From a virus (taxonomy: Duplodnaviria; Caudoviricetes): 29,511 nt of DNA. The notes under the pieces were generated by a model that saw nothing but the letters and a program-made list of their open reading frames with translations, did no database searches and was not told the origin of the DNA. This document shows positions 1 through 19,494 of the stretch, piece by piece. Made by a program: the position numbers and the translations under genes. The stretch is from positions 1 to 29,511 of IMG/VR virus record IMGVR_UViG_3300038393_002521. One strand, written 5' to 3'. Each line of letters opens with the position of its first letter. The first letter of the stretch is position 1.

Positions 1-58
1 GTCAACGACCGATGAAAAAATTTCAGCGAGCCTAGTTGATGCGCGCGTATGTTTTTGG

Positions 59-87
59 TTGGCCTTTGGCCCGAATACCGGTAGTTA
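59..87 (+). promoter_or_regulatory. Putative sigma70-type (late) promoter with spacer motif GGCCCGAATA
   Basis: TTGGCC (59-64), a 17-nt spacer, then TAGTTA (82-87). The spacer motif and its spacing from TTG are identical to the element at 23377-23405 upstream of the terminase. Confidence 0.55.
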
Positions 88-149
88 GATGGCGCGTTCC
101 GGTCGCCGTGGTGTCGACCCCACTTTCGACAACCGGAACGCAACGGTGG

Positions 150-226
150 CGCGGGGTAGAGCAGCCCGGTAGCTCGCCTGGCTCATAACCAGGAGGACGT
201 CGGTTCAAATCCGACCCCCGCTACCA
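150..226 (+). tRNA. tRNA-Met(CAT), initiator (fMet)-type
   Basis: Complete 77-nt cloverleaf: acceptor CGCGGGG/CCCCGCT with C1:U72 mismatch, D-stem GAGC/GCTC (A11:U24), anticodon arm CCTGG-CTCATAA-CCAGG, T-loop TTCAAAT and encoded CCA. Confidence 0.95.
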
Positions 227-227
227 C

Positions 228-401
228 CGGCACGAGATGCCGAGCGAAAGCCGGCGCGCTGGGCCCGATCGGATCCCCGGCGCAGTCGCAAGATGGGTCC
301 CGATCGATCCATCTGCTGCCGGTCAGTAGGCCGCCCGGGGCGCGCCGGGACAAAGAGGCGGCGTCGCCAAGGGATTAGATACCCCTCGGCGGCGTAGCCT
401 C
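228..401 (+). ncRNA. Putative structured non-coding RNA downstream of tRNA-fMet
   Basis: Nested complementary segments: CGGCA/TGCCG (228-242), GC-GAAA-GC, CCGGCGCGC (251-259)/GCGCGCCGG (340-348) and AGATGGGTC (291-299)/GATCCATCT (306-314). A long hairpin at 355-401 is capped by GGATTAGATACCC. No ORF is present. Confidence 0.55.
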
Positions 402-419
402 AAACGCAAGGAGGGCGCG

Positions 420-758
420 ATGGAGCTTGCCGAACTAGAGCCGCGTCTCACCCGCTTCGTTGCGCCGCGCTCGTTTCACTATGTCCGTTCGCTGGCGAAG
501 GCCGATAGCCTATGGTTCCTCTGCCCGGCATGCTTCATCGCGAACAAGGGCAAGGTCGGCACTCACGGGATCAGGATCGACTTCGTCGGACGCGGCGTGC
601 CTGACGAAATGTGCCTCCATAATGATCAGGGAAAGCCAGTCCGCTGGAATATGACAGGCACCAGCCTCAAGGACATCAGCCTGACGCCGTCGATCCTCAT
701 ACTCAGCGGCTGCAAGTGGCACGGCTACGTCACCAATGGCGCGATCGTCACCGTCTGA
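420..758 (+). CDS. DUF6527-like protein (putative Cys/His metal-binding)
   Basis: RBS AAGGAGG. Motifs WFLCPAC, RWNMTG, SLTPSI and CKWHGYVTNG match my recollection of DUF6527. Confidence 0.7.
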   Translation: MELAELEPRLTRFVAPRSFHYVRSLAKADSLWFLCPACFIANKGKVGTHGIRIDFVGRGVPDEMCLHNDQGKPVRWNMTGTSLKDISLTPSILILSGCKWHGYVTNGAIVTV

Positions 759-1108
759 TGCCCGGCTGGTGCGAGCTCGAGAAGGTCTCGCCGATCCTGC
801 GGCGATGGGACTTTCACTATCAGGGCAAGGCCCGTTGGAACCTCTGGTTCATCTGCCCCGCCTGCAAGGAAGCTCATGCGTTCGACGAGCGGTGGGACTT
901 CAACGGCAACTATGAGAAGCCGACCTTCAGCCCGTCATTCCTGACATGGGTCGACGCCAATCCGCAGGCGACACGCGAGCCGTTCATCAGCGGTCGTCGC
1001 TGTCACTCTTTCGTGCGGGACGGGATGATCGAGTATCAGAGCGATTGCACGCACGAGTTCGGCGGGCAGACCGTGCCGATTCCGCTATGGAGCGACAAGC
1101 GCGCGTGA
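758..1108 (+). CDS. DUF6527-like protein (second paralogue)
   Basis: TGATG overlap with the upstream gene (ATG 758). Motifs FICPAC-H, WDFNGNYEKPTFSPS and RCHSFVRDGMIEYQSDCTH. Confidence 0.75.
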   Translation: MPGWCELEKVSPILRRWDFHYQGKARWNLWFICPACKEAHAFDERWDFNGNYEKPTFSPSFLTWVDANPQATREPFISGRRCHSFVRDGMIEYQSDCTHEFGGQTVPIPLWSDKRA

Positions 1109-1771
1109 GTTGATGATGCCGATCGCGCATGCCCGCCAGAGGACGGTGTCGACCGTCGGGACCTTGTAGCCCGTCACTGCGGCGATGCGTTCGCACAGTT
1201 GCTGGGCAGTGCATCCTTCATGGTCGGCCAGGCGCTGCAAATGGACATCAGGCTTGGCGACCTGGGCGCCGAAGTTCTTGGCGAGATGATATTTGGTGAT
1301 CTCGCCGATCCAAGGCAGCGAGGCGCAGAAAACCAGCTTGTCGTCGGCGTCCAGATACTGCCGGCGTAGCACGCCGCGATTGGCCCAGATGTGATCGATC
1401 GCCGAGGCTTTCCCCTTGTGCCCGAACGCATCCTGCGCGCTGCCGCCCGAGCGCAGGGATGCCATCACCCGCTCGAATATCCCCTGGGCCACGCTGAATC
1501 GCATGCCCGAGTTGCAAATGACGAAGATTGCTTCGCGAGCGAAGATCAGCGCTGATCGTGGCGGCTGGCAATTCTCCGCCCAATCGATGTCGTCGCCATA
1601 GCCAGCCTCGCGGCAATGCCGGACCAGCTCGTGGAAGATTTCGGCGGTGATCAACGGCTGACGCTCCTGTGTTCGGTTGAAGAGCCGGAACTGAAAGGTG
1701 TCGGGGATTCCTTGGAGCGGCAGTGCGTCTAGCTCGCGGCACTCCCGGCAGATGCAGCGCTCGACGTGCAT
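1085..1771 (-). CDS. HhH-GPD DNA glycosylase-like protein
   Basis: The ATG at 1771 is coupled to the upstream stop. HhH-like LPWIGEITK is followed by KPDVHL, with VDTVLW near the C-terminus. Confidence 0.65.
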   Translation of the reverse strand: MHVERCICRECRELDALPLQGIPDTFQFRLFNRTQERQPLITAEIFHELVRHCREAGYGDDIDWAENCQPPRSALIFAREAIFVICNSGMRFSVAQGIFERVMASLRSGGSAQDAFGHKGKASAIDHIWANRGVLRRQYLDADDKLVFCASLPWIGEITKYHLAKNFGAQVAKPDVHLQRLADHEGCTAQQLCERIAAVTGYKVPTVDTVLWRACAIGIINSRALVAP

Positions 1772-2313
1772 CAGCTCCGGCGGGCCACGAGCTCGTGGTA
1801 GCGGTCTTCCCAGACGACGGCAGCCATCGCCGGCAGCCAGTAATTGAACTTCACCGGCGCCGGCTCGATGTCCGCATGCGACGATCTCCCGCGGCGACCC
1901 AGATCCACCATGGCGTCCTGCTCGGCGAGCAGCATCTGGATATCGACTTTCTTGACCACGGCCGTTCGCCAGTCCGGCCAATTGAACCTCTGTCGTAGTG
2001 CATCCTCGAAGCGGCGCTCAAATTCGACATAGTCGTCAAGTAGTACCTTCAGCGGCTTCGTGATGTCCTTGATGAAAGCCTCGGCTGCATCGTGAATCTG
2101 GAACGCGAGACGCGATCCGATTGGGGCGACATAGCTGCCAAGCGTGCAGTGTTCGGCGACCGAGTAGAACGGAATTTCTTGGCGATATTGGCCGTTGAAT
2201 CTGGTCTCTCGAGCGGCGCCCAGCGCGATGTCCCGGATCTTCACCTCGCTGACGTCGATAGGATCGAAGCAGACGCGACCACCGCTAGCGGTAGGAATGG
2301 TATTTTGAGGCAC
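1771..2313 (-). CDS. HD-domain phosphohydrolase (YfbR/YfdR-like 5'-deoxynucleotidase)
   Basis: GTG at 2313 with an AAAGGA RBS. Motifs RFNGQ, FYSVAEH, IHDAAEAF-KD-PLK and VKKVD-QML-E. Confidence 0.85.
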   Translation of the reverse strand: MPQNTIPTASGGRVCFDPIDVSEVKIRDIALGAARETRFNGQYRQEIPFYSVAEHCTLGSYVAPIGSRLAFQIHDAAEAFIKDITKPLKVLLDDYVEFERRFEDALRQRFNWPDWRTAVVKKVDIQMLLAEQDAMVDLGRRGRSSHADIEPAPVKFNYWLPAMAAVVWEDRYHELVARRS

Positions 2314-2323
2314 ATCGGTCCTT

Positions 2324-2749
2324 TCAGATAAGCGATCGCTGGCGAGGCGGCGGAGCGAGATCGCCGAGAAGCGAATTGGGAACATCGAAGAGGCCTTGCG
2401 CCCCGCGGAAAGGGGCCGGCTCGGGGAGCGCCTGGATGTTCGCGAATATCCAGCCAAAGCGGCCATCGGCATAGTTGCCCCAGCGCTCTTCCTGCTCGCT
2501 GAGCGTTGGTCGCAGAATTTCGGTGCGATCGATCTTCACGAGCTGACCGACAGCCACAATAGCGCCAAGCGGCAATTCGCCTGGCAGCCCCATCAGCGCG
2601 GCGAATTCGCGCTCTTCGGCTGTCCAGCGCTTGGCCGCGTGGATCGCGAGATTGCCGCGGTGCGACGTCCACCAATGACGCGTCTCGATCGACTTCAGAC
2701 CCAGCGCCATAGCCGAGGCCCACGGCTGCCAAAGCGAGATTGCTCGCAT
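2324..2749 (-). CDS. ASCH domain protein
   Basis: AISLWQPWAS...GLKSIETRHW...RGNLAIHAAK, and C-terminal RGAQGLF. Confidence 0.9.
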   Translation of the reverse strand: MRAISLWQPWASAMALGLKSIETRHWWTSHRGNLAIHAAKRWTAEEREFAALMGLPGELPLGAIVAVGQLVKIDRTEILRPTLSEQEERWGNYADGRFGWIFANIQALPEPAPFRGAQGLFDVPNSLLGDLAPPPRQRSLI

Positions 2750-3033
2750 TATTCCCGCTCGCCCTTCGGCCAGACCGGGCCACTGTCGGCGACGAGACAG
2801 CGGGTGCCTTCATTATTGCCGACGTACATCGGGAAGAGGGTCAGGCCGGAGAATATCGCGATGAAGGCCGTGCGAGTTTTGCTGATCTCCTCCCACTCCT
2901 CATCGGTGAATTTCCAAGCGGATACGATCGCGTGGCCGTTGATGAACGTCGGGAGCGGTCGGATGGAATCCTCACGGCCTTCTGGCGCGGTGAATATCTT
3001 GTTGACCCCATGGAATTCGACTGGATCGGCCAT
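2749..3033 (-). CDS. Conserved phage hypothetical protein
   Basis: ATG 3033 is coupled to the upstream stop. The F-G-N...LP...VSAWK-T-EE pattern is common in phage proteins. Confidence 0.75.
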   Translation of the reverse strand: MADPVEFHGVNKIFTAPEGREDSIRPLPTFINGHAIVSAWKFTDEEWEEISKTRTAFIAIFSGLTLFPMYVGNNEGTRCLVADSGPVWPKGERE

Positions 3034-3431
3034 CAGAAACAGAACCTCGCTTCGCCGGCGTCCTTCACCTCCGCCCAATCGGGTCCGAACAGGCTCTTCC
3101 AGATGACGAATAGCCGCTCATAGTCCGGCATCGGGCGATCGTGCTTGCGCAGATGATGCTCGATCTTTCCCCGCGCCGCGTCGCTGACGAACACCTCGGG
3201 CTGGAAACTGCGCTGGCAGTTGGGGCACGCGGCCTGCGGGATCTCGAGGCGGTAGGGCAGGGCCTGGCCGGGAATGCGGCCGATTGGCCCGAATAGGATG
3301 ACGGGAAAGTGCGTTCCGACACCGCGACAGTTGGGATTGAAGCAGACGAGGGTATGCTCCGTGCCATTGGCATGGGCGACATCGCGAACGGCACTCGCCG
3401 GAATGGAGGAGGTGATCGTCTTGTCGGTCAT
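3033..3431 (-). CDS. Hypothetical protein with possible zinc ribbon
   Basis: CFNPNC and CPNC motifs, with ATGA coupling to the upstream gene. Confidence 0.7.
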   Translation of the reverse strand: MTDKTITSSIPASAVRDVAHANGTEHTLVCFNPNCRGVGTHFPVILFGPIGRIPGQALPYRLEIPQAACPNCQRSFQPEVFVSDAARGKIEHHLRKHDRPMPDYERLFVIWKSLFGPDWAEVKDAGEARFCF

Positions 3432-4459
3432 TGGGGATATCCATCATGCTGGACGCCATCGAGCAGTCTGCCAGCGACCTTCTTGCCAACACGCCACATG
3501 TCGCGCCCAATACTCTGGTCGATTGGCCGCACTCCCTTGACCTCCGGCATGTCACGTTCGCTGCCATCGTCCGGGTAGCAAACGACGTCCCCATCCAGGA
3601 AGTCGACCTCGCATGGAAGCCATTCGCCCCATTGCTTGAATAGGAACGGCACGCCGGCGGCTGCGCACTGGTCACGAAGCGAGCGCGCCCAATCTGGGTG
3701 CATCGGCCGCGCGCCAGGCCCGCTTTCGCCGCCGGCTACGACCCAATGCAGTTCTCGATCATAAAGGCCGAACGGCTGCACATCGACGGGGCCGAGCAGA
3801 GGCTCGCAGCTGAGCCAGCGAACCGCGGCGGGCGTGTCGAGTAGGATGGGAATTCGCTCATCGGCCCGTCGCTGATCCTCGACGCTCGTGCCGAGCCAGA
3901 CGTTTCGCAGCGGCCATGGGCGCTCGCCGCCCCAAACCGCGCCTTGACCGGCAAGAGCTGCGAGCATTGGATCGTCGCTGATGATGGGCAACCGCACATT
4001 GCCACGCAGTCCGTGCGACCAGTCATCGACGAAGTTGTCGACGCTCGACCAAATGCATTCCGCTCGCTCCGATACATAATCGCGCATGCGATCTGGCCGC
4101 TTCGTCAGCACCTGGAAGTAGTGCCAATGAGCAAGTGCCATGATGGTGAACTCGCGGTCGATCCACTCATCAGGCACACTCGGATGGAAAAGGTCGCCGT
4201 GCGCGTTCGGGAAGATCCGCCGCGGTCGCTTCCACCGCAGCGGATCAAGCAGCACTTTCTCATTGAATCGAACCTGCCCGTTCCAGACGGGCCCGGCTTT
4301 CGTGTCGATCGTCAGGCCTTCACGGCTCGGATGATGCTTCAGCCGCGTGCCGGCTAGGCGCATGGCATAGCAGTTGGTGCAGCCGGGGCTGACGACGTTG
4401 CACCCGTTGACGACATTCCACGTCGCGTCGGTCCATTCGATTTTGGTTCCGTCAGCCAT
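3428..4459 (-). CDS. Phage Gp37/Gp68 family (DUF5131) radical-SAM-like protein
   Basis: TKIEWTDATWN, GCNVVSPGCTNCYA, GDLFH, FQVLTKRP, NVWLGTSVEDQ, WLSCEPLLG, WVVAGGESG, FLFKQWGEW. Start ATG at 4459. Confidence 0.93.
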   Translation of the reverse strand: MADGTKIEWTDATWNVVNGCNVVSPGCTNCYAMRLAGTRLKHHPSREGLTIDTKAGPVWNGQVRFNEKVLLDPLRWKRPRRIFPNAHGDLFHPSVPDEWIDREFTIMALAHWHYFQVLTKRPDRMRDYVSERAECIWSSVDNFVDDWSHGLRGNVRLPIISDDPMLAALAGQGAVWGGERPWPLRNVWLGTSVEDQRRADERIPILLDTPAAVRWLSCEPLLGPVDVQPFGLYDRELHWVVAGGESGPGARPMHPDWARSLRDQCAAAGVPFLFKQWGEWLPCEVDFLDGDVVCYPDDGSERDMPEVKGVRPIDQSIGRDMWRVGKKVAGRLLDGVQHDGYPQ

Positions 4460-9955: not shown

Positions 9956-10188
9956 TTCGATTGCTCCTTCTGACGACCGCGCACCTCGGCGGCCTGCTTG
10001 AACCAGTCTCGCTCGGCCTGCGTCGTCGACAATTGCCGCTTCAGCCGATTGTTCTCCTCGAGCGCGCCACGACGTAGAGCGCGCGTCGCCCAATGGGCTT
10101 GCTGCTCACGCCGAAGCGCGATCGCCAAGGACGCAGCGATGATCACCGAGGCTAGGGCGATCATCAAACAGGCGGCGACCTGGCTCAC
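9952..10188 (-). CDS. Membrane-anchored coiled-coil protein
   Basis: N-terminal TM followed by a heptad-like region. GTGA coupling to dnaN. Confidence 0.7.
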   Translation of the reverse strand: MSQVAACLMIALASVIIAASLAIALRREQQAHWATRALRRGALEENNRLKRQLSTTQAERDWFKQAAEVRGRQKEQSK

Positions 10189-11336
10189 ACGCGCATCGGC
10201 ATCAGAACGGCGAGGAAATCCTCGTCATTGTCGAACTTGAAGGTGATTGGCTGAGCTGGGTCCGCCCCGAAGCCAATCGTCACGCCCGTTTTCGGATGCG
10301 TGTCCAATATCTCGGTCGCGTATCTTGCGTTGAAACCAATCGACTGTGGAACGCGATCAGCGACCTTCCCTGCAAACGTCTGGCTAAATCTGAAACCTTC
10401 TGGGGACGAAAATCTAATCGTCGAGGCGCGCGGATCTAAAACGGCACCTTTTATGGACTCGCCGCCGAGCTTCCTGATTGTCTTCAGGGGTCCAGAGAGA
10501 TCGTCCGATTGCAGAGAAAGTTCGCCTACCGAAGCGTCCGGCAAAATGCGCGTGTAATCAGGATAGGTGCCATCGATGAATTTCGTCTCGAGGAGCCATT
10601 TGCCAACGGAAAAGCAGCCGTGGAGTTTAGCAATTTCGATGAGTACGTCCGATCTGGACGAGTCGCCTGCCAGGATCGCCAATAGGCACCTAATGCCTCG
10701 CGTTCTGAAGATGACCTGCGGCATCTCTCCGTCCACCGTGAGCAGTGGGGAATGAGCCAAGTGAAGCCGATGACCGTCGGTCGCCGCCAGTTCAAGGCGA
10801 CCGTCGACCATCTTCATCGAAATGCCGTTCAAATAGTAACGGGTTTCCTCATACGAGATCGCAGGCTGACATAATTTCAGCGCTCTCATCAGAGCATCCG
10901 CTGGTGCCTCCAGGATCACATCTGGGTCTGGTCGGCGGAATGCTGGGAAATCGTCTGTCGGGAGCGAGAATATCTCGAATTCGCCAGCTTTTCCGCGAAT
11001 GAATAACTTGTCGTCAGTGGCAAAAAAGCCTAGCTCTTCTTTGCCGAACGCATTGACTGCAGCCTGCAGCGCACGATGTTCCACGAGCGAAGAAAAAGCA
11101 GGCGACCCGCAAGGCAGCACGCATGTAAGTCTGTGATCGAGATCGGTCCCGACAACCGTCAGCGTTTTTCCATTCGCCGTGAGCAACACGTTTTCCAGAG
11201 CAGGTATTGAGGCCCTTCCCTCGACCACACCCCCAAAAATAGCCAGCACTTGGCCGAGTCGCTCGCCCGTTAGGGCTGGCGACTCGGCGGCTGGGGAGGG
11301 GGTCTCTTCTATGACGGCTGCGGCGGTCTTCGGCAT
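10185..11336 (-). CDS. dnaN: DNA polymerase III beta sliding clamp
   Basis: IPALENVLL, GTDLD, DDFP, AISYEETRYYLNGI, ATDGHRL, IDGTYPDY, IGFNARY and C-terminal VLMPMRV. 383 aa. Confidence 0.93.
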   Translation of the reverse strand: MPKTAAAVIEETPSPAAESPALTGERLGQVLAIFGGVVEGRASIPALENVLLTANGKTLTVVGTDLDHRLTCVLPCGSPAFSSLVEHRALQAAVNAFGKEELGFFATDDKLFIRGKAGEFEIFSLPTDDFPAFRRPDPDVILEAPADALMRALKLCQPAISYEETRYYLNGISMKMVDGRLELAATDGHRLHLAHSPLLTVDGEMPQVIFRTRGIRCLLAILAGDSSRSDVLIEIAKLHGCFSVGKWLLETKFIDGTYPDYTRILPDASVGELSLQSDDLSGPLKTIRKLGGESIKGAVLDPRASTIRFSSPEGFRFSQTFAGKVADRVPQSIGFNARYATEILDTHPKTGVTIGFGADPAQPITFKFDNDEDFLAVLMPMRV

Positions 11337-16546: not shown

Positions 16547-17091
16547 ACGACCGCACCGAGCGCATCAGCCGCGACGCATATCGCAAGCTGGTCGGTTTGC
16601 CGCCTGTAGGTCAGCAGACGGAAGTCATCGAATACAAAGGCTCGTGCTGGAAGCTTGCTCCCGTCCCCGGCGTCCGCGGCGAGGACATTACCCGCACACG
16701 CGCGACCTTCGTTCCCGGACCTCAGCACAAGGGCAAGCAGCATCACATGCTTGGGCGGCTGGGCGTCGGGATCATGAACAAGACCGAGGCCCGCTACGAG
16801 CGCGAGGTGCTCATCCCCGCCAAGGAGCGCGGTGAGTACCTCTGGTACGCGTTCGAGGGGGTCAAGCTGCGCCTCGCGAACCGCACCTTCCTCACCGTCG
16901 ATTTCTTCGCCCTCAGGCCCGACCAGGTCTTCGAGGCGATCGACGTCAAGGGCGCCAGAGCCATCGTCGAGGAGGACGCCAAGGTGAAGATGAAGGTCGC
17001 CGCGGCGATGTTCCCGTTTCAATTCAGGATGGTCTTTCCCCGTCCCCGCGCTCTGGGCGGCGGCTGGTTCACCGAGGAGGTAAAAGGATGA
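16543..17091 (+). CDS. DUF1064-like PD-(D/E)xK endonuclease
   Basis: MNKTEARY, FEGVKLRLA, VDF...IDVKG, and DAKVKMKVAA-FPF. Confidence 0.8.
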   Translation: MNDRTERISRDAYRKLVGLPPVGQQTEVIEYKGSCWKLAPVPGVRGEDITRTRATFVPGPQHKGKQHHMLGRLGVGIMNKTEARYEREVLIPAKERGEYLWYAFEGVKLRLANRTFLTVDFFALRPDQVFEAIDVKGARAIVEEDAKVKMKVAAAMFPFQFRMVFPRPRALGGGWFTEEVKG

Positions 17092-18074
17092 ACGCTTTGG
17101 GCAACAAGCGCCTCGTTATCTGTGGCTGCAACCGCGTCGCCGTCGCTGCGGCGACGACGCTCGCAACACATGATCTACCCCCCTTCAGCACGCTCTTCAT
17201 CCAAGGGCCAAGCGGGAGCGGCAAGACCCATATCCTGCGCGCCATCGAAGCGATGCATCGGGCAATTCAGCCCCAGGCGACCCGCATGCTCCTCAACGCC
17301 GGCGAGCTGATGCGCTGGCCGAACAAGGTCAACGAGGACGAGCTCCATGGCATCGACCTCCTTTTGATCGATGATCTCGACGTCGTCGCCAAGTCCGGCA
17401 TCACGCAGGAAAACCTCGTCCACATCATCGATACGATCGAGCGCCTCGCCAAGGGCCGCGTCGCGATGACGAGCTCGCTCACCACGCGCGACCTCAGCGG
17501 CATCAGCCCGCGCCTGATGTCGCGCCTCTATGCGGCGGCCGGCGTCGATATCGGACGGCCGGACGAGGCGATGCGCGCCGACATGCTCCGCGCCGAGCTC
17601 GAGCAATGGCAGGAGGTCCGCATCAGCGGTTCGCTGATTGCCTCGCTCGCCGAGCGTCTTCCGAGCGACGGCCACATCATCGCCGGCGCGGCCAAACGCA
17701 TCGCGCTGCATGTCCAAGCGACCGGCCTCGAGCCTGATGAATCCGTCGTGCTGGCGATGCTCCACAACAGCATCAACCTCACGCCCAGAATCGCCGTCTC
17801 CCTGATCCAGACGCACACTGCCAAGCATTTTCACATCCCGGCGCGCGAGATGACCTCAGATCGCCGGGCCCGCGAGGTCGCACGGCCGCGCCAGGTCTCG
17901 ATGTATCTATGCAAGCTCCTGACACCCAAGTCGCTGCCCGACATCGGCAATCTGCATGGCGGGCGCGATCATACGACCGTCATCCATGCGGTGAAGCAGA
18001 TCGAGAAGCTCCGCGCTGTCGACGGCGACCTCGATAGCTCCATCCGCGTTATCGAGCGTGAGCTCACGCATTGA
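17088..18074 (+). CDS. dnaA: DnaA-like protein, domains III (AAA+) and IV only
   Basis: Walker A GPSGSGKTH, Walker B LLLIDD, RLMSRL, and domain IV RPRQVSMYL...SLPDIG...GGRDHTTVIHA. It starts right at domain III. Confidence 0.9.
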   Translation: MNALGNKRLVICGCNRVAVAAATTLATHDLPPFSTLFIQGPSGSGKTHILRAIEAMHRAIQPQATRMLLNAGELMRWPNKVNEDELHGIDLLLIDDLDVVAKSGITQENLVHIIDTIERLAKGRVAMTSSLTTRDLSGISPRLMSRLYAAAGVDIGRPDEAMRADMLRAELEQWQEVRISGSLIASLAERLPSDGHIIAGAAKRIALHVQATGLEPDESVVLAMLHNSINLTPRIAVSLIQTHTAKHFHIPAREMTSDRRAREVARPRQVSMYLCKLLTPKSLPDIGNLHGGRDHTTVIHAVKQIEKLRAVDGDLDSSIRVIERELTH

Positions 18075-18400
18075 GTTGGAGGTGGCCTCGACTGCGTGAA
18101 TCGCTTCGTCGTCGCGATGGCGAGCGCTGCCGGCGTTGTAAGGAGCCTGAGCGGCGCTGCTGGCGGTTCATGGCCTTGCGGATCAGCGACGACTGGCCGG
18201 ACTTCAGCAGATACTCCGAGATTCACCTCTGCTCGAATTTGGAGATCGACCATGTCATTGCGCGGCGGCTGGGGGGCAAGACGCGCCTGAGCAATCTCCA
18301 GCTGCTCTGCATCCCATGCCACAAGCAAAAGACGTCCTACGAGCGACTCCTTTGGCCGCAGCGCGCGCATAAGCGGCTTCCTACTAGGTTGTTCGCATGA
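18071..18400 (+). CDS. HNH endonuclease
   Basis: RRDGERCRRC, LEIDHVIA-GG-NLQLLCIPCHKQKT. TTG start. Confidence 0.88.
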   Translation: MSWRWPRLRESLRRRDGERCRRCKEPERRCWRFMALRISDDWPDFSRYSEIHLCSNLEIDHVIARRLGGKTRLSNLQLLCIPCHKQKTSYERLLWPQRAHKRLPTRLFA

Positions 18401-19494
18401 GCCGCGAAGTGGAATCATGGGCTCGGCAGCAGAAGACTGGAAATCCAGTCCGCAAAGCGGTGCTCGTCGCACTCGCTAACCAAGCCGATAGCCTCGGCCA
18501 GAATTGCTTCCCGTCGATCAACTTCCTTGCCGAAGAGGTGGAAGTCGATCCGCGCACCATTCAGCGACGCCTGAAAGAGCTTAAAGCAATGCAGCTGATC
18601 GATTGGGGAGTGCGGCTACGGGCCGACGGATCTCAATCATCCAACTGCTACACCTTCATTGGGTATGTCCCACCGAGGCTTTCCCATCGTCCCGCTCCTA
18701 CGCCACTCAAAGGGGGTGGCAAAATGCCGGGGGGTGCCAAATTGCCATCCCTGGGTGACGCCAGCGCCACCGGGCCCCACGACACTGTTGTCACCCCAAG
18801 GACTCCTGACGAATTACCTTTCCCCCCCACTGCTGAAGATAAATCTCCAGCAGTGTCGCCCCCCAAGGGTGGCGAACCGCCGGTTGATGATCAGCAGGAG
18901 GTCGAAGAGCCGAGGGCAAGGCGCGGGACACGGCTTCCCGAGGACTGGAGCCCGCCGCCGATCGACACGCTGCCGCAGACCGTGCAGGCCGTCGTCGCCC
19001 AATGGCCGAAGGGCGCCTACGAGTTCGTCGCTGCGGGCTTCGCTGGCTACTGGACGGCGGAGAACGGCCGGCGGGCGAGCAAGCGCAACTGGCGAGCTGC
19101 CTGGGTGAAGTGGCTGACGGCCGAGGGTGTCCGGGTGCTGGCGATGGCACGGAACGGCATCAAGTTCTTCTCCGGCACCGTGAAGCTTGCTGACGACGAA
19201 GCGCTCGCCGACCTCGAACGGCTGCGCAGCTCCGAAGACGAATGCGTCGCCAAATTGCGGGATCATCTGCGCAAGGATCTCGGCGCCCAGACCTATGACG
19301 GCTGGCTGAGGCCGACCGTAATCGGCATCCACCCCGGGCACCTCACCGACTGGTACGTCAACGTTATCTGCCCGAGCGCTTTCATGGCTGATTGGGTCGA
19401 GCGCAACTTCAAGCCGACCATCACCGCCATGGCCTGCCGGATCCTCGAGACCGACAGCCTCACCATCCAGTTCGAGATTGTGAGCGACCGCTGA
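18397..19494 (+). CDS. Phage replication initiator: N-terminal HTH plus C-terminal DnaA domain I
   Basis: KAVLVALAN-AD...CFPSINFLAEEVEVDPRTIQRRLKEL...SNCY, then RGTRLPEDWSP, then C-terminal LRKDLGAQTYDGWLRP...PSAFMADWVERNF. Confidence 0.88.
   Translation: MSREVESWARQQKTGNPVRKAVLVALANQADSLGQNCFPSINFLAEEVEVDPRTIQRRLKELKAMQLIDWGVRLRADGSQSSNCYTFIGYVPPRLSHRPAPTPLKGGGKMPGGAKLPSLGDASATGPHDTVVTPRTPDELPFPPTAEDKSPAVSPPKGGEPPVDDQQEVEEPRARRGTRLPEDWSPPPIDTLPQTVQAVVAQWPKGAYEFVAAGFAGYWTAENGRRASKRNWRAAWVKWLTAEGVRVLAMARNGIKFFSGTVKLADDEALADLERLRSSEDECVAKLRDHLRKDLGAQTYDGWLRPTVIGIHPGHLTDWYVNVICPSAFMADWVERNFKPTITAMACRILETDSLTIQFEIVSDR
18712..18797. repeat. Iteron-like repeats (putative phage origin) inside the rep gene
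   Basis: GGGGGTGGCAAAATGCC (18712), GGGGGTGCCAAATTGCC (18730), GGGTGACGCCAGCGCC (18753) and an inverted GGGGTGACAACAGTGTC (18781-18797). Confidence 0.65.

Follow-up and report, generated by a model that had tools for sequence, protein, structure and literature searches.

Why should a soil phage carry, on a hairpin of its own, a loop that is otherwise found in the small subunit of the ribosome? The question is raised by positions 355-401 of the window (the whole stretch of 29,511 nucleotides analyzed here). The genes of the window, which include those for a gpA terminase, an integrase, and DnaA-like, beta-clamp, and GapR-like proteins, identify it as a phage fragment, and the GapR-like gene suggests an alphaproteobacterial host. 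The 13-mer GGATTAGATACCC lies at 372-384 on the plus strand, its single occurrence in the window, and it is present in none of 100 shuffled sequences. By sequence comparison, it is exactly the tip of helix 24 of 16S rRNA, i.e., two G-C closing pairs and the nine nucleotides of the 790 loop (374-382), named by the numbering of E. coli 16S rRNA. In the ribosome, the 790 loop contacts KsgA. In the phage, it caps a plus-strand hairpin (355-401) predicted to have 17 base pairs (5+8+4) and two 1x1 mismatches: GAGGC at 355-359 pairs with 397-401, GCGTCGCC at 361-368 with 388-395, and AGGG at 370-373 with 383-386, while the nine nucleotides of the loop stay open. The fold energy of -32.1 kcal/mol (z -5.9) is reached by none of 200 shuffles. 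The minus strand folds as well as the plus (-31.3), so folding energy leaves the strand of the hairpin unfixed.

Except for the two or three pairs closing the loop, the stem is unlike 16S rRNA, and identity stops at 13 nucleotides (compared to Aureimonas 16S) or 15 nucleotides (compared to the 16S in locus L041). The first-pass annotation had described a 13-mer capping a non-rRNA hairpin about 130 nucleotides 3' of a tRNA-fMet, with loop closure of the rRNA type and flanks unlike rRNA, and it was correct in each respect; the tRNA ends 128 nucleotides before the hairpin. The hairpin shares with helix 24 its nine loop nucleotides, two or three closing pairs, and the position at a hairpin tip, but it differs in being a free-standing structure of 47 nucleotides, with an unrelated lower stem and no further 16S sequence.

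The element falls outside the ribosomal-protein leaders, tRNA-like elements, terminators, and repeats. Within positions 1-3000 of the window, the tRNA is the sole Rfam match, and neither SSU rRNA nor a ribosomal-protein leader was found. ARAGORN and Rfam call only 150-226, and the hairpin has no acceptor stem or CCA that might identify it as a tRNA or tRNA-like T-arm. No intrinsic terminator (stem plus U run) was found in positions 1500-3400 of locus L053, the region covering the locus, and a scan for promoters and terminators detected none. The hairpin occurs once in the window, unlike a multi-copy mobile palindrome or a repeated DNA site.

It is also a real feature rather than an artefact of assembly, the possibility by which the first-pass annotation proposed that its reading might fall. 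Another contig (L053) is 100% identical over 3365 nucleotides, the ORF1 protein encoded next to the hairpin is present on nine contigs, and contigs of two further runs (X11 and X12), neither flagged as a possible source, cross the hairpin with zero differences. An identical locus in another contig and in two further runs excludes the artefact. Of 17 runs that carry the sequence, none is listed as an RNA run, which speaks neither for nor against transcription. L053 is the only representative of the DNA upstream of the window. Homologues of the exact locus among viral contigs came only from the same phage, and among cultured phages only the tRNA was matched. A relative from soil matches positions 144-261. 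Alignment A1, which had no positive control, covered 201 genomes from a single alphaproteobacterial order and found the exact locus in none, and two distant homologues of ORF1 have no 790 loop within 1.5 kb.

The tRNA (150-226, plus strand; Rfam RF00005, 63.2 bits) is a tRNA-Met(CAT) with an encoded CCA, and it is of initiator type by the rules for such tRNAs, an unpaired 1:72 and A11:U24. Its anticodon stem carries U29-A41, also seen in the tRNA of the L085 prophage, where the alignment shows A29-U41 in the host tRNA-fMet of two alphaproteobacterial Aureimonas relatives. The noncoding spacer between tRNA and hairpin (227-354, plus strand) contains four or five small hairpins, has no Rfam match, and does not fold clearly better than shuffles (z -1.67). 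Downstream of the hairpin, on the same strand, lie two DUF6527/BubE-like genes: ORF1 (420-758, 112 amino acids; Pfam PF20137, 32.7 bits, cut-off 23.6) and ORF2 (758-1108, 116 amino acids; PF20137, 28.7 bits; phrog_3362), whose start overlaps the stop of ORF1. ORF2 ends against a convergent gene, the first of the opposite operon.

DUF6527 has been equated with the serine peptidase BubE (bioRxiv 2024.11.21.623953, in part), and Ser91, Cys98, and His101 of ORF1 have the same spacing as Ser92, Cys99, and His102 of the published protein. With scores above the PF20137 cut-off and a Ser-His dyad, ORF1 and ORF2 may be classed as putative BubE/DUF6527 peptidases. They resemble the products of Bub operons (bioRxiv 2024.11.21.623953, in part) in these respects but differ in forming a stand-alone phage pair, as no gene for a ubiquitin-like protein, E1, or E2 was found among the 30 scanned of the 244 listed ORFs of the window. 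PADLOC called none of three proteins. Such a pair could strip ubiquitin-like tags set by a host defence. Stand-alone BubE-like genes in phages without the rest of the Bub operon, seen at 420-1108 of the window (a coupled pair) and at L522:1495-2159, are candidate anti-ubiquitination peptidases. One other locus carrying the 790 loop (L460) has it after a DUF6527 gene 36% identical to ORF2. Of 527 loci, the only ones with DUF6527-like genes were L460, that of this phage, and two chosen for carrying such a gene, both of which lack the loop.

What does the match to 16S rRNA signify? About 1.35 matches of 13 nucleotides to any 16S site are expected by chance in a window of this size, and there is indeed another at 10741, so the match by itself is not above chance, a caveat absent from the first-pass annotation. 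Other phages were therefore examined for display of the loop beyond chance, and the case rests on those. An anchor-free scan for the loop closed by three pairs, CGG-loop-CCG, gave 50 viral loci, 36 once homologues were removed. The stem past the fixed core amounts in total to 79 pairs in this class, compared to 23.5 when the arms are permuted (0 of 5000 permutations did as well). Stems of at least 5 bp are found in 16 of the 36, whereas real viral DNA taken as background has them in 29 of 178 loops (p 4e-4), and the loop is displayed at P of at least 0.9 in 21 of the 36, compared to 21 of 176 loops of the background (p 1e-8) or to 15 of 61 when background loops rich in AT are taken (p 1e-3). 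The longest perfect stems of the class reach 16, 14, 10, and 8 bp.

In scans anchored on tRNAs, whose pattern itself fixes two pairs, stems of at least 4 bp appeared in 6 of 9 viral matches and 9 of 11 tRNA-adjacent metagenome matches (duplicates removed) but in 0 of 13 matches to three neutral control 11-mers. A fourth control 11-mer turned out not to be neutral, and only the other three served as control: it found a family of hairpins beside tRNAs (12 of 15 with stems of at least 4), so loop families at the side of tRNAs are not unique to copies of rRNA. Hairpins with loop AUUUGAUCA, a family distinct from that of the 790 loop and brought to light by a control pattern, occur beside phage tRNAs in L177, L182, L196, L207, L233, L248, and L257 (near 480-500 in each), several of them within minimal tRNA-like bodies that have an acceptor-like stem.

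Taking six scans together, 36 of 113 distinct matches outside 16S genes fold at P of at least 0.8 and 77 do not; those that fold make up 15 of the 22 matches close to a tRNA and 21 of the other 91. Some of the folded matches away from tRNAs lie in coding frames and probably arose by chance; dividing coding from noncoding matches by open frames is uninformative in GC-rich DNA. The eight of 66 anchor-free matches that lie within 200 nucleotides of a tRNA (one is this phage's own copy) are all on the strand of the tRNA, and there was one strong copy per record in each of 15 records. The two 15-mers occur 52 and 50 times in viral contigs, raw counts that by a rough estimate look no higher than chance and that were set aside, and chromosomes of Patescibacteria showed no overall excess (5 of 401 compared to 5 control matches). 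An alignment of 21 rows is 84% paired, with 36 two-sided changes (reached in none of 500 shuffles), and its stems use every type of pair; since the rows were picked by hand from the 113 for their folding, the count describes covariation and does not test it. L054 and L090 alter the pair equivalent to 785:797. Two of three weak extra matches to the model were rejected, one an antisense tRNA and the other a sequence lacking the loop.

The hairpin of the window belongs to a different class, GGG-loop-CCC, and here the numbers, which include this phage's own copy, are less striking. Permutation of the arms gives p 0.037; stems of at least 5 bp occur in 6 of 30 compared to 19 of 156 in real background (p 0.19); the loop is displayed at P of at least 0.9 in 3 of 29 compared to 7 of 151 (p 0.21); and at P of at least 0.5, p is 0.005, or 0.08 against AT-rich loops. 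The GGG class is thus weakly enriched. At the level of the family, the loop is a copy of a host RNA site on a structure under selection, and this holds less strongly for the GGG class. The hairpin at 355-401 probably belongs to a family, so far undescribed, of RNAs that display rRNA loops.

The first-pass annotation, which proposed an rRNA-mimic RNA made by the phage in association with tRNA-fMet, stands in part. Display of the 790 loop is selected, as seen from its unrelated but paired stems, its occurrence in the sense of neighbouring tRNAs, and two accompanying copies of the 690 loop, but the tie to the initiator tRNA is not specific. The nearest tRNA has a CAT anticodon in 2 of 15 folded tRNA-adjacent members, compared to 33 of 498 control tRNAs (p 0.26), and 21 of 36 folded matches sit amid protein genes with no tRNA nearby.

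Three further explanations were considered. Perhaps an ordinary stable hairpin, in a structured phage spacer, acquired the 13-mer by chance. The expectation of 1.35 such matches, the presence of a second one, and the lack of clear enrichment of the GGG class in long stems are all in keeping with this. It is nonetheless improbable, in that the match is placed exactly as a loop, with the closing pairs of 16S rRNA and on the strand of the tRNA, and loops displayed in this way are strongly enriched in the CGG class and next to tRNAs, with the 690 loop alongside in two cases. Or the loop may be a generic T-loop, part of a fold like the tRNA elbow or a substrate of enzymes that act on T-loops, its identity to 16S rRNA a matter of convergence. 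The 790 loop does resemble the T-loop consensus, and in mitochondria it is methylated by TRMT2B, a tRNA enzyme, while TrmA methylates 16S rRNA in vitro (bioRxiv 797472, in part); moreover, another family with nine-nucleotide loops occurs in tRNA-like elements next to phage tRNAs. The phage loop, although it fits the consensus of the T-arm substrates of TrmA and TRMT2B (bioRxiv 797472, in part), differs from them in its A-C closure and its fixed 16S sequence, and the hairpin of the window lacks their acceptor stem and CCA. When 96 allowed loop variants near T-loops were sought, the exact loop gave two matches, both folded, the 15 closest variants (ATTAGA-NN-C) gave none in this test with only two exact matches, ATTAAATAC gave two that were unfolded, and no near-variant was folded among the 46 distinct matches (two of them exact). 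What else folded in the variant scan comprised anticodon arms of tRNAs, a single terminator-like stem, and three matches of unclear nature. In this small test (two exact matches), positions free to vary in T-loops are constant among folded matches.

Also, two loci unrelated in sequence, L158 and L165, carry within 50 nucleotides of the 790 hairpin a copy of 13-14 nucleotides of the 16S 690 loop, itself presented as a hairpin. The 690-loop 12-mer is absent from 366,792 nucleotides of control sequence, and there is no copy of the 690 loop in the window. The site of IF3 on the 30S platform is made up of helices 23 and 24 together, and the C-terminal domain of IF3 binds the 790 loop (PMC3130014, in part). 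The 690 copies point to the platform, and together with the variant test, small as it is, they favour 16S rRNA over a plain T-loop, which is itself an improbable account, slightly more so than a chance match. A third possibility, that the hairpin is a decayed fragment of host 16S rRNA or an artefact of primers or assembly, is already largely refuted and very improbable. A copy in an rRNA operon spacer (L152) retains a 16S tail past the loop, and that in L028 resembles a 16S remnant, but against this, identity ends at 13-15 nucleotides whereas the new stem pairs fully. None of 20 member loci has an SSU match in Rfam, the element in genome G002 differs in its stem from that genome's own 16S rRNA, and such elements occur in independent assemblies and in a prophage of an isolate.

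The settings in which the loop appears are varied. In L044, L089, L158, and L165, it lies between two tRNAs. Those of L044 (1392-1606) both have CUA anticodons, which suggests amber recoding or suppression in that phage. In a tRNA-like gene (L156:457-561), a 790-loop hairpin takes the place of the anticodon loop. A long insertion in a 23S rRNA gene (L147:532-1974) contains tRNA-like genes and a 790 hairpin, and a 23S-5S spacer (L152:1084-1105) has two tRNAs and the copy with the 16S tail, either a remnant or a misassembly. Further members lie between co-directional replication genes, just 5' of a Shine-Dalgarno sequence. Two tRNA arrays also have 790 hairpins (L529:4950-4993 and 3546-3611; L530:246-599 and 3278-3336), along with an SRP-like stretch, Y-RNA-like matches below the cut-off, and RNase P RNA.

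The module is swapped among relatives, as seen by comparing L085 to L515 and L158 to L166; L166 keeps the 790 hairpin while the 690 hairpin is replaced. In two Aureimonas relatives (L085:1025-1130 and L515:1490-1640), a conserved scaffold RNA with no Rfam match bears different hairpin inserts; in G412, the scaffold of the Aureimonas prophage has another insert. The core of the scaffold has a short likeness, not significant, to a 23S helix, presumably helix 41. Among Bacillus phages, 7 of 12 records carry the 13-mer in a block of 73 nucleotides within a tRNA cluster, and 5 of 12 match only up to the block; in the slot of the 790 block of Basilisk and PBC4, Bak10 and BCPST (L526:755-780 and L527:755-775) have a hairpin with loop CUUAAU. 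By energy, the loop does not fold in the cultured phages Phrappuccino (P 0.01) and Basilisk, and since it is not predicted to be open, the matches in Phrappuccino and phages of the Basilisk type are doubtful.

That the loop has this sequence and fold, recurs on unrelated stems, appears with the 690 loop, and is swapped in the manner of a cassette is a matter of observation. An RNA hairpin that is present in a single copy, lies on the sense strand, is swappable, and keeps a ribosomal loop exact to the letter among unrelated genes is most readily understood as bait for a protein recognizing that loop. We would give a probability of roughly 0.45 to the hairpin serving as an RNA decoy that engages a host protein recognizing the 30S platform, probably in counter-defence. 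According to this model, the hairpin would be one of a family of small RNA modules in which the 790 loop of 16S rRNA has been copied onto an unrelated stable stem. It would most likely share a transcript with the tRNA-fMet and both BubE-like genes, then be released as a stable RNA to act in trans. The host protein bound would be one able to read the platform loop. A defence nuclease or a modifying toxin is the likeliest candidate; IF3 is a less likely one, as is a factor of assembly or hibernation. Binding would protect or redirect translation during infection, to the benefit of the phage.

Counter-defence is preferred because hairpins of this kind lie among tRNAs, proposed to act against nucleases, and that of the window beside BubE-like genes. 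The more specific claim, counter-defence as such, is tentative, and titration of IF3 or assembly factors is quite unlikely. Phage tRNAs have been proposed as a counter to tRNA nucleases (PMC10264068, in part; see also PMC11464382), and the hairpin shares their genomic setting, next to a tRNA-fMet that differs from the host's at 29:41; it differs in not being a tRNA and in imitating the ribosome rather than the decoding adaptor. Helix 24 is sensitive to RNase in the absence of hibernation factors, and helix 41 inhibits RNase I (PMC8406268, in part), so it is possible for helices of rRNA to engage nucleases. In the open-licence literature of PubMed Central and bioRxiv, neither a nuclease nor a toxin with specificity for the 790 loop was found. 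Decoy RNAs made by phages exist, e.g., pseudo-ToxI mimics of antitoxins and RNA anti-CRISPRs. Like these, the hairpin would be a small phage RNA mimicking a host RNA, with a protein partner that is in its case putative, but it is modelled on ribosomal RNA and is present as a single copy rather than an array.

Perhaps, however, the hairpin acts in cis. On its own transcript it would then be the binding site of IF3, a nuclease, or a ribosomal protein, and would thereby control translation of the next gene or mark a site of processing or stabilization. This reading is strong for the window, where the hairpin abuts the Shine-Dalgarno sequence of ORF1 (AGGAGG, 409-414, plus strand), ending seven nucleotides before it, and where in an alternative fold of 340-430 (z -2.63) positions 413-419 could pair with 341-347 and so be covered. 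Several other members directly precede a ribosome-binding site, and those in L443, L471, L451, L452, L460, and L473 lie between co-directional genes, 30-70 nucleotides before the next start. Mimicry of rRNA in mRNA leaders is an established principle (PMC10931766, in part), and the hairpin shares with the leaders by which ribosomal-protein mRNAs are autogenously controlled an rRNA-like site in the transcript, in the window directly before the ribosome-binding site. In contrast, the phage elements copy the rRNA loop letter for letter and precede unrelated genes (primase-like, DNA polymerase, Sak4-like, BubE-like), none for a ribosomal protein, or lie between tRNAs. The four members flanked by two tRNAs have no gene to regulate, and the one in L156 is part of the anticodon arm of a tRNA-like body. 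A scan of 45 flanking ORFs revealed no ribosomal-protein gene (the gene 3' of the window's hairpin encodes DUF6527), and no Rfam leader family matched the member loci. Overall, action in cis seems rather unlikely.

A decoy acting in trans would fit a broader conjecture, that phages and some Patescibacteria possess a set of interchangeable small RNAs, each bearing a functional loop copied from the ribosome (790, 690, and probably others) and acting as a decoy against an undescribed class of defence enzymes that target ribosomes. The window might then hold a counter-defence unit in which a 790 decoy is combined with a variant form of tRNA-fMet and two BubE-like peptidases that stand alone and act in deconjugation. 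We consider this possible but doubtful.

The first-pass annotation knew of no described system like this, and neither Rfam nor the open-licence literature of PubMed Central and bioRxiv provided one: a phage mimic of the 790 loop is described in none of these articles and has no Rfam family, and the available portion of PMC2615604 makes no statement on the 790 loop. In the hairpin we may be seeing a kind of ribosome-mimicking RNA that has so far gone undescribed. Should phages indeed maintain ribosomal loops in exact copy, each copy may flag a host protein by which the corresponding site on the ribosome is attacked or controlled during infection, and the 790 hairpin would be ready bait with which to fish for such a protein. 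If the decoy model is true, then counter-defence by RNA would reach beyond tRNAs to ribosomal RNA, and part of the unexplained noncoding DNA in phage tRNA clusters would be offered a testable function. Even if the hairpin acts in cis, it would represent a new and portable mimicry of rRNA outside ribosomal-protein operons.

Copies of other 16S segments were also found. The segment 1496-1508 is found as a hairpin near a 790 member (L090:1359-1371), a 14-mer of the 530 loop lies antisense to another member (L451:1053-1066), and an 18-nucleotide copy of the 3' end of 16S rRNA is on the minus strand of a control locus (L324, 158-175); the background of such 16S 13-mers in controls is 8.7 per 100 kb. 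Elsewhere in the window, a DnaA-like ATPase with the C-terminal domain of DnaA is encoded beside a replication initiator with the N-terminal domain (17088-19494), and the window also encodes a beta clamp (10185-11336) and two DNA methylases.
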